Shown here: one piece after another, positions 45,239-51,582 of the stretch
Layout: the number at the start of each line of letters is the position of its first letter
How positions within the stretch are numbered: the first letter of the stretch is position 1
Notes under the pieces: generated by a model
Told to the model about the DNA's origin: nothing
The model's input: the letters and a program-made list of their open reading frames with translations, nothing else
Database searches by the model: none
Made by a program: the position numbers and the translations under genes
Origin: an uncultured Clostridia bacterium
GTDB taxonomy: Bacteria; Bacillota; Clostridia; TANB77; CAG-508
Reading direction: 5' to 3'
Length of the DNA stretch: 57,537 nt
NCBI GenBank assembly: GCA_947631335.1
Contig: CANRKZ010000002.1
Location: 1 to 57,537 of the forward strand

Positions 45239-46837
45239 TTATTTCAAGCTTTCTTTTACTTTTTCTAGCATATCTTTATATTTTTTAAGTTTTGCTCTTT
45301 CTTCCTCAATTTTTGCTTGCGGTGCTTTATTAACAAAACCAGAATTTGATAACATTTTCTCACACCTTTGTACTTCAGATTCCAATCTTACTTTTTCCGT
45401 TTCTAATCTTTTCCTTTCTTCTTCAAAATTAATTAATCCTTCTAAAGGTATATAGAGTTCTATTCCATCTGTTATAATTTGGATACTATTTTCTGGTATT
45501 CCTGTTTTGTCTCTTTGAATTTTTGCTTTTTTAGCAAAACCAAATTTTAATAAAATTCCTTCTGCTTCTCTTAATTCCTTTTCATATTTCTCTGTTACTA
45601 AAATTAATTCTGATTTTTTTGTAGGATGAATATTTTTTGTACTTCTAATATTTCTAATTTCTACTATCATTTCTTTTAATTTTTCTATAGTTTCTTCTTG
45701 TCTATCATATTCAAAATTTTTATAATCTTTTGTTAACTCTACTTTTGGCCAATGACTTACCATTAAGTCTGTCTCATCATAGGAAATTAATTCATCATAT
45801 ATTTTAGATGTTACAAACGGCATAAAAGGATGTAATAATTTTAGGCAATTTCTAAATACTTCATTTAAAACATATGATACTTGTATTTTTTCCTTCTTAT
45901 TTTCTCCATATAATCTTACTTTCGCCATTTCTATATACCAATCACAAAATTCATTCCACATAAAATTATAAATTTTATCAATGGCAACTCCTAAGTCATA
46001 ATTTTCAATATGTTTTGTAACTTCTAAAATCAACTTATTTAATTTGTTTAAAATCCACTTATCTGATAATTTCAAAGAACCTTTTTGATAACTTCCTTCT
46101 TTTTCCTTATAATTATTTTTTCTAAATTCTAATATTTCTTCTTTTTCTGGTCGATTCATAAGTATAAATTTAGCAGCATTCCATAGTTTGTTAGCAAAAT
46201 TAGAAGCTTGTTCTAGTTTTTCAGGCATATATCGAATATCATTTCCCATAGTTGTACCAGAAAGAACAGAAAATCTTAAAGCATCTGCTCCATATTTCTC
46301 AATCACTTCAATTGGATCTATACCATTTCCTAAAGTTTTTGACATCTTTCTTCCCTGACTATCACGTACAATTCCATGAATTAACACATCACTAAATGGT
46401 TTTTCTTCCATGGCATAAAGTCCAGAAAATATCATTCTTGCCACCCAGAAAAATATAATATCATATGCTGTTACTAATACATTGGTTGGATAAAAAGTCT
46501 TTAAATCCTCTGCTTGTTTATTTGGCCAACCTAAAGTTGAAAATGGCCATAATGCTGAACTAAACCAAGTATCTAATGTATCTTCATCTTGATGCAGTTT
46601 ATGAGAACCACATTCTTCACATGTTTTTGGTTTTTCTTTCGCTACATGAATATGTCCACATTCATCACAGTAATAAGCAGGTATTTGATGTCCCCACCAT
46701 AATTGTCTTGATATACACCAATCTTGTATATTCTCCATCCAATTAAAATAAGTTTTTTCATATCTTTTTGGAATAAATTTAACTTCATCTTTTTTTACTA
46801 CCTCAATTGCTGGTTTTGCCAAATCCTTCATTTTCAT
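45239..46837 (-). pseudogene. valS: native bacterial-type valS, 3' fragment (from ...KMKDLAKPAIE to the coiled-coil C-terminus)
   Basis: DWCISRQLWWGHQIP, KMSKTLGNG (KMSKS) and a C-terminal coiled coil. In-frame TAG immediately upstream of the first Met. Confidence 0.85.
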
Positions 46838-46994
46838 CTATACACATTCCTGGTAAATTTATTGTTATATCAGAATAAAATTCTTCTTCTGTATAGGCTA
46901 AAATTGCTATTCTACCATTATTTTTATATTGTGAAACTTCTAAAAAAATTTCTTTTCCTTTGAATTTTAATGTTTTTCTTTGTTTGTTATCCAT
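46803..46994 (-). CDS. 63-aa hypothetical protein whose 3' end runs across the insert/valS junction (probably truncated)
   Basis: SD ggagg. The last ~10 codons overlap valS-derived sequence in another frame. Confidence 0.4.
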   Translation of the reverse strand: MDNKQRKTLKFKGKEIFLEVSQYKNNGRIAILAYTEEEFYSDITINLPGMCIDENEGFGKTSN

Positions 46995-47013
46995 TTTATT
47001 TTATCCTCCAGTT

Positions 47014-47238
47014 CTATAATTTCTTTTTTTGTTGTTTGCTTATATCTTTAAATATACTTAATTCATTTTTTGCTGTTATTAATTCTTCAAATACTTCTTC
47101 TACACATTTGTATTCTTTAATAGTTATTCTATCTCCAAATACTGTAATCAATATAAAACTATCATCATCCCATACTAAAATACATTCTGTTTTCTCTCCA
47201 AAATTATTATCTATAAAATTAAATTTCACATATCTCAT
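47014..47238 (-). CDS. 74-aa hypothetical protein
   Basis: The ATG directly abuts the stop of the rep-like gene (TAAATG). Confidence 0.45.
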   Translation of the reverse strand: MRYVKFNFIDNNFGEKTECILVWDDDSFILITVFGDRITIKEYKCVEEVFEELITAKNELSIFKDISKQQKKKL

Positions 47239-48197: not shown

Positions 48198-48228
48198 TAA
48201 AAAAAGAACTGATATTTCTATCAATTCT
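48198..48228 (-). terminator. intrinsic terminator after valS2
   Basis: Minus strand reads agaattgata-gaaa-tatcagttct followed by ttttttt. Confidence 0.55.
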
Positions 48229-48253
48229 CTTTAAATTTTATTACTCTTTCCTA

Positions 48254-50668
48254 TTAATCTTCTAAATCTAGCTCAATATCATATACTTCATAATCCTCAT
48301 CTATTATTTTGCATTCTAAATTTTGTATAAACAAAGTTGCTTTAAAATCCTTTATCGATTTATCAATAGCCTCTTTAAGCTCCTTATTAACTCCTATTGA
48401 CAAATTCTTTATAGGTGTCTTTAATGAAACATTATTATTAGTTTTAGCCCCTCTTGATTGACTTATAATTTCAATTATTTGATTACCTAATTCAATTTCT
48501 TTATTAAAATCATAAGTTAATGGTTTAATTTCTGTAAGATGAATAGAAGAATTGTTATGGTATAATTCTTGGAATATTTCTTCTGTTATAAACGGAAAAT
48601 ATATACTAAAATCTTGCAATAATTTATACAATAATATATAAACTGTCTTTTGTCCACTATATCTTGGTATCTCCCCAAATTCTTCTGGTCTATATAATCT
48701 ATGTTTTACTATTTCTATATAATTATCACAGAATTCCCAAAAGAACTTTTCTAAAATATTTAAAGCTAATCCCACTTCATACTCATCTAAATAATTAATA
48801 AATTGTTTTTCCATTTCCTGAAAACGTCCTAGGATCCATTTATCAATAAATTCAAATTCTTCAAACTCTTTATCTTCGTAATCTGATAAATGCATTTCAA
48901 TAAATTTAGATACATTCCATATTTTATTAATTAATTTTTTTCCACGAAGCAATGTTTCTTCACTAAATACAATATCTGTTCCTAATCTACCCGTTCCAGC
49001 CCAATATCTAAGAACATCTGCTGAATATTGTTTTATTAAATCCATTGATTCATGTTTGCTATTTCCTTTACTTTTGCTGATTTTTTCTCCCTTATTAGCC
49101 ATAACAAAGCCTGAAATCATTACATTATCCCATGGTCTTTGTCCAAAATGGTAAAAACTTTTTACTATTGTATAAAAATCCCACGTTCTTATAATTTCAC
49201 TCGCATTTGTCCTTAAACTCATTGGTTTTAAGATATCTTCAAAATTCTCTTTTTCTCCATATCTCATATTTATAAGTGGTGTAACTGATGATGTAGCCCA
49301 AGTGTCCATTATATCTGTATCAGCTTCAAATTCTTTACATCCACATTTTGAACATTTTTCAATCTTTGGTTTATCTACTAATGGATTTACTGGTAAATCT
49401 TCTTTTCTTGCAAATATAGGTTCACCACAATCTTTACAATACCAAACTGGAAATGGAACTCCAAAATATCTTTGTCTTGAAATACACCAATCCCATGCAA
49501 TATTATTTACCCACTCATCATATCTTGAATGCATATGTGCAGGATGCCATTTTATTTCATTACCAATTTTCAAGAAATCTTCTTTATGATTCATAATGTC
49601 TATAAACCACTGTTTCATAACTGCATATTCAACTTCTTTTCCACATCTTTCGTGTGTTTGAACTTCATGTTCTAATTCTTCAACTTTAACTACATATCCA
49701 CCTGCTTGTAAATCTTCTATTATTTTCTTTCTAGCTTCTTTTATTTTTAAACCACCATATTTTGGTACTTCATCTATTATCTTTCCATTATCTGTGAATA
49801 TATATTTCAATGGTAATTTATATTTTTTCCACCATTCAATATCAGTTTGATCACCAAAAGTACAACACATAACAACTCCTGTACCTTTGTCAATAGCAAC
49901 TTTTTCATCAGCCATTATTGGAACTTCCACATCAATCACAGGAATATGTGCAGTTTTACCAATTAAATGTTTATGTTTTTCATCTTCTGGATTAACAAAC
50001 ACACAAACAATAGCAGGTAAAAGTTCTGGTCTTGTTGTTGCAATCGTAAATTCTTCATTGTCTTCTATAGTTTTGAAATTTATATAATTAAATGTTGTTT
50101 TTATTGTTTTTGTTTCTAATTCAGCTTGTGCAATTGAAGTTAAACACTCATTACACCATAAAGCTGGACTTTCTTTATGATAACAATGTCCTTTTTCAAT
50201 TAAGTCTAAAAATGACTTTTGACTAATTTTTATCGTTGATGGTGCAACCGTTTTATAATGAATACTCCAATCTGTACTTACACCCATTTTACTAAATAAT
50301 TCTTGGAAATCTGCTTCGTATTTATTAGTAGTTTCATAACATAGTTCTGAGAATTTTTCTCTTCCTATTTCATGAGCTCTCTTACCTTGTTCTTTTTCTA
50401 CAAGTCTTTCACTAGGTAATCCATTATCATCAAATCCAAATGGATAAAATATATTATATCCTCTTAATCTCTTATATCTTGCTAACATTTCTGTTTGAGT
50501 ATATGAAAAAATATGTCCAATATGAATTTTGCCATTTACTGTTGGTGGTGGAGTATCTATTGAATATATTTCTTTTCCATTTCTTTTAAATTTATAAATT
50601 TTATTATCTTTCCAATAATTTAACCATTTTTCTTCTTTTTCTAATGCGTTATATTTCTTATCTAACAT
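48254..50668 (-). CDS. valS: valine--tRNA ligase, archaeal/actinobacterial-like type (second copy, insert-borne)
   Basis: [14 protein letters not shown] (HIGH), [47 protein letters not shown] (KMSKS). ATG at 50668 after gaaagggg. Confidence 0.8.
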
Positions 50669-51582
50669 GCTACACACCCCTTTCTATTTATATTAAAATA
50701 ACAAGTTATCAATTCTCTCAACCTCTGTAAATTCAACATTTCTTTAATTTTTGCACCAAATGGTGTTACATTTACACATCCTGTTCCAAATTCCATTTCT
50801 ACAAATTCATCACTAATAATTGGAATTTCTCTATTTACAATTGGTACTATACAAGTTTTCCCAACTAAATCTTGATATCTTTTATCCTTTGGATTAACGG
50901 CCACTGCAGTATCTCCTAGCATAGTCTCTGGTCTTGTAGTAGCCACTTCAACATATTTGTTTTCTCCTTTAATTTGATATCTTAAATGCCATAAATGAGA
51001 TTTTTCTTCCTTATATTCTACTTCTGCATCAGAAATAGCTGTATGACAATTTGGGCACCAGTTCACCATTCGAGTTCCTTTATAAATATAACCTTGTTTA
51101 TATAAGTTTATAAATTCTTCTAAAACAGCTTCTGATAGTCCCTCATCTAGAGTAAATCTACGTCTTTCCCAATCACAAGAACATCCTAATTTTCTTTGTT
51201 GTTCCTGAATAGTTCCTCCATATAATCTAGTCCATTCCCAAGCTTCTTCTAAAAATTTTTCCCTTCCTAAATCTTGTTTTGTTTTTCCCTCTTCTTTTAA
51301 TTTTTGAACTACCTTCATTTCAGTTGAAATAGAAGAATGGTCAGATCCTGGAAGCCATAAAGTATTATAACCTTGCATCCTCTTAAATCGAATTAGAACA
51401 TCTTGAATCGTATCATCTAATGCATGCCCCATATGTAATTTTCCCGTTACATTTGGAGGTGGCATCATAATACAATAACTTTCTTTTTTCTTATCCATAC
51501 TAGGTTTAAAATAACCTTTTTCCTCCCATTCTTGATACAAGTCGTCTTCAAAATCTTTTGGATTGTACTTTTCTTTTAACAT
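50662..51582 (-). pseudogene. valS: native bacterial-type valS, 5' fragment ([12 protein letters not shown]... to ...[12 protein letters not shown], then ~30 foreign codons)
   Basis: [13 protein letters not shown] (HIGH) and [20 protein letters not shown] at 51582 after aaaggagg. Homology is lost after ...VTP. Confidence 0.85.

Follow-up and report, generated by a model that had tools for sequence, protein, structure and literature searches.

The stretch of DNA analysed here (the window) comprises 57,537 nt from an uncultured gut Clostridia bacterium (assembly GCA_947631335.1, contig CANRKZ010000002.1). The feature under study (45,239-51,582) is a gene for bacterial-type (type-1) valyl-tRNA synthetase (ValRS), valS, that is split into two pieces by an insert carrying a second ValRS gene, of type 2 and complete, designated valS2. 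All genes of the valS/valS2 locus lie on the minus strand, and their coordinates are collected in Table 1. Families were assigned by profile searches against Pfam, NCBIfam and PHROG, and RNA elements by a scan against Rfam. Relatives of valS2 (82-95% protein identity) were found in more than 580 stretches of a species-representative collection, and 80 of these were retrieved. Comparison loci, designated L001 and onward, were retrieved with up to 10 kb of flank. All close relatives of the window organism are metagenome-assembled genomes (MAGs); the closest in the species collection is L001.

The open reading frame (ORF) that holds the 5' piece of native valS runs from 51651 to 50662, with its true start at the ATG at 51582. 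That of the 3' piece runs from 46837 to 45239, begins MKMKDLAKPAIE and covers the KMSKS half of the catalytic domain, the anticodon-binding domain and the coiled-coil arm. In L001 the corresponding gene, of the 880-aa class, is intact, and synteny with the window extends to both sides (purA upstream, spoIIAA-spoIIAB-sigF-spoIID downstream). The 5' fragment shares 78-85% nucleotide identity, and syntenic flanks, with the intact valS of L001, L002, L004 and L008; the 3' fragment is 82% identical to L001. Similarity to L001 breaks at window position 50761 and resumes at 46831 (L001 7745 and 8007), with 261 bp absent. The left boundary was refined by the finding that the "NVTP" ending the 5' piece belongs to an arm of the element's attachment site that mimics the native "KITP", and native sequence ends at 50773.

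Table 1. Features of the split valS locus in the window, from high to low coordinate (attL, left attachment site; attP, attachment site of the element; Rep, replication initiator)
Feature	Position	Strand	Basis
Predicted sigma-70-like promoter, TTGTAA-17-CATAAT with TG extension	51863..51891	-	consensus scan only
T-box leader of native valS, specifier GUA (Val)	51620..51849	-	Rfam RF00230
Native type-1 valS, 5' fragment	50773..51582	-	codons 1-270, ends ...EFGTGCV; NF004349 profile positions 2-269
Central AA of attL, putative serine recombinase crossover point	50771..50772	-	host variation stops and element identity starts (L086-L089, L112/L114)
Element left end: attP P' arm (TGTAACACCATTTGGTGCAAAA) and ~100 bp spacer with valS2 ribosome-binding site	50669..50770	-	sequence
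valS2, complete type-2 valine--tRNA ligase, 804 aa	48254..50668	-	NF009687
Replication-initiator-like gene (HTH_36), 274 aa, first element backbone gene	47239..48063	-	Pfam PF13730; PHROG replication-initiation families
74-aa ORF, element backbone	47014..47238	-	small ORF at same place between Rep and DUF4313 in L200, L201-L208
DUF4313 gene, 5' half, deletion-truncated	46835..46994	-	PF14190 profile positions 2-47 of 104; alignment to L201 homologue
Deletion junction with microhomology GAAAATGAAGGATTT	46822..46836	-	three-way alignment of window, L201 DUF4313 and native valS
Native type-1 valS, 3' fragment	45239..46834	-	...KMKDLAKPAIE to stop; NF004349 profile positions 356-859

An earlier note on this DNA had proposed that native valS was disrupted in situ by an insert supplying a valS of a different type. 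The profile matches and the synteny with L001 bear this out: the inserted DNA is foreign and has a replication-initiator gene and a complete ValRS gene, both native fragments were assigned to type 1 (NF004349) and valS2 to type 2 (NF009687), and comparison of relatives recovered the intact gene at this locus in L001. The same note put the native sequence missing between the fragments at ~90-100 residues. About 87-90 codons (~86 NF004349 positions, 270-355) are indeed gone, but the gap would stem from a later microhomology deletion, described below, and not from the insertion. The missing part includes the AHDPND editing motif and the CxxC region, and with ~87 residues absent from both pieces these do not add up to a complete split enzyme, an outcome that by the note would have spoken against its reading. 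At sites invariant in intact orthologues the two fragments are changed at 1 of 103 and 3 of 165, the same as intact genes. There is no excess of changes, and the disruption is therefore recent on that scale, as the note had supposed. Continued selection on the N-terminal ORF for translational coupling may also be compatible with this result.

The inserted valS2 scored 994.8 bits against NF009687 (PRK13208; cut-off 738) over profile positions 4-794 of 801. HIGH is found at residue 49 and KISKS at residue 529 (KISKSKGN), and the best match among solved structures is Thermus thermophilus ValRS (1GAX, E = 2.5e-96). One private change was counted at 371 sites invariant across 84 homologues. By these signs valS2 looks functional, and it is probably active and the sole ValRS of its host. 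Exact-protein look-ups gave no record of either the window valS2 or the window SpoIIAA.

Among the 80 valS2 loci retrieved, out of more than 580, 13 have a type-1 valS 5' fragment or remnant directly upstream, 4 more have type-1 valS or its fossils downstream, and at least 25 have a T-box leader of their own; in these last species valS2 is therefore simply the valS. A junction of the window type was found in at least 13 other species, in which host valS differs by 15-35% and the insert is 98-100% identical from the junction on. In four species representatives (L086-L089) the valS 5' fragments are 68-88% identical, and from the junction identity is 100% for more than 12 kb, valS2 and the replication-initiator gene (Rep) included. 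Between L112 and L114 it is 64-86% before the junction and then 98-100%. The junction consists of ...GG-NNNN-GTW (GTGTW) on the host side, the central AA, and TGTWACACCATTTGG... on the element side, and is seen in hosts from both Clostridia and Bacilli as well as in other metagenome contigs. The identical junction nucleotide is present in L091, L128, L152, L156, L159 and L187-L190 as well, and Bacilli hosts share it though their valS is only 51-55% identical. An identity switch this sharp and constant speaks for site-specific recombination and against the homologous kind.

In the sister species L081 valS2 stands alone at the syntenic locus, which keeps a 69-aa in-frame mosaic mini-ORF of valS N-terminal remnants ending over the valS2 start. 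An intact gene in L001, a split gene in the window and valS2 alone in L081 fit a series of gene displacement, and the earlier note's description of a displacement in progress agrees with it. In one Bacilli species (L141, 1591-6575) valS2 and an intact type-1 valS form a tandem pair, valS2 first and 20 bp apart, with one T-box upstream of both, which is a different route to both enzymes.

The target of integration is partly palindromic DNA for the editing-domain motif G-T-G-C-V-K-I-T-P, with an unoccupied attachment site (attB) of the form ...GGTTGTGTT-AA-AATAACACC... It encodes FGTG(A/C/V)VKITPAHD; codon positions 1 and 2 of this target are nearly invariant in 76 of 80 type-1 valS genes, which accounts for the broad host range. 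In L091 and L152 both junctions are present and zero valS sequence has been lost. Searching proteins with the 3' fragment of L091 gave two forms that are 99% identical, one truncated (575 aa) and one intact (879 aa). L192, with an empty site and an intact 879-aa valS, and L091, with an occupied one, belong to one species, which is not the window's own. The sequence GGTTGTGTTAA is present as a single copy in L192 and on both sides of the insert in L091. The attB of L192 reads GAGTTCGGTACAGGTTGTGTTAAAATAACTCCAGCACATGAC; in L091 attL passes from ...GGTTGTGTTAA into TGTAACACCATTTGGTACACAA, and the right attachment site (attR) from ...TGATTAGGGTTGTGTTAA into AATAACTCCAGC. At both junctions the switch falls on AA. 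That a transposase duplicated the target site was considered for the flanking copies and rejected: in L152 the two copies are not the same, and one arm is specific to the element and does not vary between hosts.

In L193 a 552-aa large serine recombinase (LSR; 50-1705) stops 75 bp short of the crossover. Next come valS, from ...VKITPAHD onward, and the genes spoIIAA-spoIIAB-sigF-spoIID, which also follow valS in the window. Recombinases of this kind (552-553 aa; Resolvase, Recombinase and Zn_ribbon_recom domains) were found directly upstream of a truncated valS 3' fragment in L193, L195-L199 and L209-L216, with identical recombinase proteins adjoining 7 different host arms. The P arm beside the recombinase (TTGTGTACCAAARGGTGTA-GTT-AA) is an inverted repeat of the P' arm upstream of valS2 (AA-TGT-TACACCATTTGGTACACAA) at 18 of 19 positions. 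For a second recombinase subfamily TTGTGAACC pairs with GGTTCAAAC in the valS2 elements L128, L156, L159, L188 and L189. Because the att half-sites match and co-vary and the crossover point is shared, the recombinase end was joined to the valS2 end, and the recombinase beside attR probably belongs to the valS2-bearing elements. The attP reconstructed from the two arms is a 46 bp imperfect inverted repeat (synthetic sequence TTGTGTACCAAARGGTGTAGTTAATGTTACACCATTTGGTACACAA). Upstream of the recombinase, no sequence in common with the compared loci was found.

Several further observations were made at or near the attachment sites. L091, L161 and L164 have a common conserved right end (135 bp before attR) with an outward-facing promoter-like site, TTGATT-17-TAAAAT with TG, and their cargo differs; one of the three carries a valS2 only 52% identical to that of the window. 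In L193 (1705-3609) an ATG overlapping the recombinase stop opens a 634-aa ORF that continues in frame across attR into the valS 3' fragment, from which a truncated ValRS could be produced off an element transcript; the corresponding ORF differs in other copies (576-666 aa). Two metagenome contigs (L191 about 9925-9950, L194 8164-10769) have a frameshifted type-1 valS that is free of any insert. The L191 frameshift, of +2, falls a few bases before the att crossover (GAGTTCCGGAACTCGGATGTGTAA) and may have been left by excision or be an error of sequencing. The metagenome contig L184 (ERZ824488 NODE_222, 78,257 bp) starts exactly at the P' arm of the element, as would be expected if the assembler had broken off at a point where one element is common to several hosts, and it may be a full-length element.

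The right junction of the window insert is not an att site. The microhomology GAAAATGAAGGATTT is common to the DUF4313 gene of the element and to valS codons about 382-386, and the DUF4313 protein, 124 aa in sister elements, is reduced in the window to a 63-aa ORF running out of frame into valS. L200, a metagenome assembly made independently from a different sample, matches the window at 99.95% identity along 8661 bp (window 48091-39430). It spans this junction and contains Rep, the 74-aa ORF and the truncated DUF4313 gene fused to the 3' piece of valS. The split structure is not an assembly artefact, because L200 repeats the right junction and many other assemblies repeat the left one.

The genes of the insert were compared with those of related elements. 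Rep of the window is 83-85% identical to that of a sister family (L201-L208) and 46-50% identical to Rep of L086-type elements. Members of the sister family carry Rep (at 10001-10825 in most), a small ORF, the 124-aa DUF4313 gene, PAPS reductase, methylases, ParB and a MobL relaxase, and in many gut Clostridia they are inserted at the 3' end of spoIVB, which encodes a sporulation protease; an identical element of this type was seen to adjoin diverged host genes. This family of integrative and conjugative elements (ICEs) resembles the window remnant in the backbone order Rep, small ORF, DUF4313 and in inserting at a gene, and differs from the valS elements in having no valS2 and a sporulation gene as target. 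The lineage that targets valS appears to be a derivative of a sister-type backbone that gained valS2, and the window insert is only the first genes of such a backbone. No family match was obtained for the 74-aa ORF in the Pfam, NCBIfam and PHROG searches. In L086 and L089 the element exceeds 23 kb and includes Rep, a sortase, a 1505-aa adhesin, a DnaG-type primase, a type IV secretion system (T4SS) coupling protein, PrgI and a VirB4-like ATPase. L165, on the same contig as L089, has T4SS-DNA_transf, PrgI, TraC/VirB4-like, primase and sortase genes, with the coupling protein fragmented and no relaxase within reach.

Against annotated plasmids and phages the insert matched in the Rep HTH domain alone (45-55% protein and ~67-72% nucleotide identity), for which reason the label "plasmid-like" is only loosely apt. 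Among the same plasmids and phages valS2 had no relative above 36% identity, and a collection scan did not find it in viral contigs. An intron or intein was rejected, as an Rfam E-value scan of 44000-54000 gave the T-box only and the insert genes each have their own start. In two Bacilli hosts (L152 13053-15350, L142 14432-16549) a 714-aa SagB-YcaO fusion is present as cargo between valS2 and attR, followed in L152 by a short Cys/Gly-rich precursor-like ORF (MKILNFKVVSYSKSNTLCACVTGGGGCACDDGTSE); judged by its gene content, this cargo looks like an azole-peptide locus travelling with valS2.

The T-box leader upstream of the native 5' fragment scored 94.9 bits, barely over the gathering score of 93, and has a terminator hairpin and T-run at 51631-51609. 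The specifier context GAA-R-GUA-G is kept in the valS leaders of relatives. This leader is now the sole recognisable regulatory element upstream of valS2, and no terminator-like site was found between the two in the window. The 5' fragment ORF runs across the crossover into the element left end, which encodes its non-native tail (...NVTP onward, with the central AA just upstream), and ends ...TGT TAG across the valS2 ATG, the stop at 50662-50664 overlapping the valS2 start. The same overlap is found in most copies, and the spacer upstream of valS2 is conserved in L081, L086-L091, L112, L114 and L128. A T-box leader upstream of the N fragment is also present in L086 and L152, and in L112 it lies upstream of orf148 of the valS operon. 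This arrangement suggests that translation of the N-fragment ORF is coupled to that of valS2.

Taken with its relatives, the insert is very probably the decayed left end of an LSR-integrated ICE that has a fixed site inside the type-1 valS coding sequence. We infer the following order of events at the window locus. An LSR would have integrated the ICE at one fixed position within the bacterial-type valS. Integration inside valS would kill the cell, and the element would therefore bring a complete valS2 just inside its left end. Once integrated, valS2 would stand behind the host valS promoter and valine T-box leader, with its start overlapping the stop of the truncated valS ORF, so that host regulation and translation would be handed to it. 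A later microhomology deletion between the DUF4313 gene and valS codon about 383 would then have taken the conjugation genes, the recombinase, attR and about 270 bp of valS. With attR and valS sequence lost, excision would therefore be unable to restore valS, and the cell would depend on valS2.

Several points weigh against this reconstruction. The window insert contains no recombinase, no attR and no conjugation genes, and its history is therefore drawn from relatives. Among the loci with 10-kb flank, valS2 and the recombinase never occur together on one contig, the elements being longer than 23 kb. No circular attP junction was found in genome, metagenome or viral contigs by exact and strict patterns, and assemblies rarely capture circles. 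The short derivatives L091, L161, L164 and L152 are without a recombinase, and the right-end arm of such derivatives differs in its outer part from the recombinase-linked arm. A second valS may be present elsewhere in the genome, the evidence being confined to the window, and the enzymatic activity of valS2 is predicted from its sequence.

The insert might instead be a piece of plasmid that entered valS by chance illegitimate insertion, its valS2 making the native gene dispensable, and it was as a plasmid-like insert that the earlier note had described it. The presence of a replication-initiator gene, the lack of an integrase and the ~87 missing valS codons, a loss unusual for site-specific integration, would suit such an event. 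The missing codons, however, are due to the separate microhomology deletion, which also truncates an element gene. The identical junction nucleotide recurs in at least 13 other species, Bacilli with valS 51-55% identical among them, the target is palindromic, and a serine recombinase lies at the matching right junction in relatives. We regard a chance origin as very improbable, and describe the insert as the left end of a site-specific ICE found at the same valS position in many species. Only slightly more credence is given to the proposal that a cassette of valS 5' fragment and valS2 formed once and spread by homologous recombination in flanking valS with no dedicated recombinase. Some pairs of valS2 alleles are mosaic (L128 and L156 are 100% identical for 1.2 kb, then 75-90%), and the absence of a recombinase from L091, L152, L161 and L164 also speaks for it. 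Exchange of this kind would have left breakpoints at variable places inside an 800-bp homology arm, whereas identity always switches within a few bases of the same AA; the valS genes of Bacilli and Clostridia are too diverged for exchange, and identical recombinases adjoin different host arms.

A misjoin of a plasmid contig within valS during assembly or binning can practically be dismissed. The source assembly is of metagenome type and the close relatives are all MAGs, but both flanks belong to the same gene in the same orientation at a syntenic locus, and the two junctions recur in independent assemblies, the right one at 99.95% and the left one in many. A resistance role for valS2, also raised in the earlier note, would make it an inhibitor-resistant synthetase selected by a ValRS-targeting compound, with disruption of the native gene secondary. 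Mobile resistant synthetases exist for other amino acids, namely MupA/MupB for isoleucyl-tRNA synthetase (IleRS) and AgnB2 for leucyl-tRNA synthetase (LeuRS), and form a precedent for this proposal; the SagB-YcaO peptide natural-product locus beside valS2 in L152 and L142 also counts in its favour. MupA/MupB and AgnB2 resemble the valS element in the mobile delivery of a second synthetase from a different lineage. They leave the resident gene intact and are selected by an inhibitor, whereas the valS element destroys the resident gene and no inhibitor is evident. The window insert holds no biosynthetic or transport genes and the window no inhibitor gene cluster, and the MupA/MupB and alt_ValS exception models scored valS2 below their cut-offs. 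The protein fits the ordinary type-2 equivalog, and at least 25 of the 80 species sampled have valS2, under a T-box of its own, as their sole valS. We know of no natural ValRS inhibitor from gut bacteria. Compensation for the broken gene accounts for the architecture without an inhibitor, and selection by one is considered unlikely here.

Two further features of the window lie outside the valS locus. The sigF gene (43481-44240, minus strand) is frameshifted, with region 2 out of frame with regions 3 and 4, and its ORF has only 164 aa where relatives have 240-254 aa. L200, the independent assembly, shows this frameshift too, and sporulation may have been lost in the window organism. The window also encodes a second LSR, unrelated to the valS recombinase (30% identity), of the TndX-like type and with a DUF4368 domain (7996-9666, minus strand). 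Together with a small resolvase (10471-11079, plus strand) it suggests another mobile element in the window.

LSR-mediated elements and prophages inside Firmicutes coding sequences include the skin element (SpoIVCA) in sigK, SPbeta (SprA) in spsM and A118 in comK. Like the valS element, these have the recombinase gene at one end beside an att site, are inserted mid-ORF, and have an attP that is an imperfect inverted repeat round a central dinucleotide; in both cases excision would restore the gene. The genes they interrupt are not needed for growth, and programmed excision makes them whole again; valS, by contrast, is essential in growth, and its function is supplied by a foreign gene at the attL end. 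A further class of element, comprising ICEs and prophages, has a tRNA gene or the end of an essential gene as attB and carries a duplicate of the displaced end; SXT in prfC belongs to it. Another example is Tn5253 in rbgA (PMC8571831). The valS element has in common with this class a conserved housekeeping gene as landing site and a function kept by element sequence. The Tn5253/SXT class rebuilds the same gene with a short duplicate, whereas the valS element abolishes the gene mid-ORF and supplies a whole enzyme of non-orthologous type, which takes over the host promoter and T-box. It is well known that LSR elements lie within genes and that elements use housekeeping genes as att sites repaired by a short duplicate. 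What was not found in the literature searched is a landing in the middle of an essential synthetase gene combined with a substitute of a different type under the host leader. No valS-targeting element with a replacement valS was described in the full-text literature searched or in a large recombinase survey, a coverage that is incomplete and leaves novelty unproven.

Aminoacyl-tRNA synthetases are well known for their horizontal mobility and are textbook cases of essential genes that are replaced. The concept of xenologous gene displacement in situ has been used previously (PMC2588523, PMC2651853), and the valS case corresponds to it in that a foreign version of an essential gene stands at the position of the resident and under its regulation. 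Such displacement, and the steps of synthetase replacement in particular, are usually deduced from gene trees. In the valS case the sequences themselves reveal the vehicle, the recombination site, the intermediates and the regulatory hand-over, in stages that comprise an intact valS, a fresh split with an identical element in several species, a split locked by deletion, remnants only, and valS2 alone. It is conceivable, and is put forward tentatively, that a conjugative family in gut Firmicutes lands in valS, pays with a foreign ValRS and has the swap made permanent when either the split native gene or its own excision machinery decays. Such a family might be a main engine of the replacement of type-1 by type-2 ValRS across hundreds of gut Clostridia and Bacilli species and a general, directly observable route by which core translation genes are displaced horizontally. 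The case further shows that an essential gene can be entered in its middle, as an attachment site, by a mobile element that brings a functional substitute, which widens the range of possible sites for integrative elements; the recombinase described here is also on offer as one with a short, highly conserved target in most bacteria with a type-1 valS.

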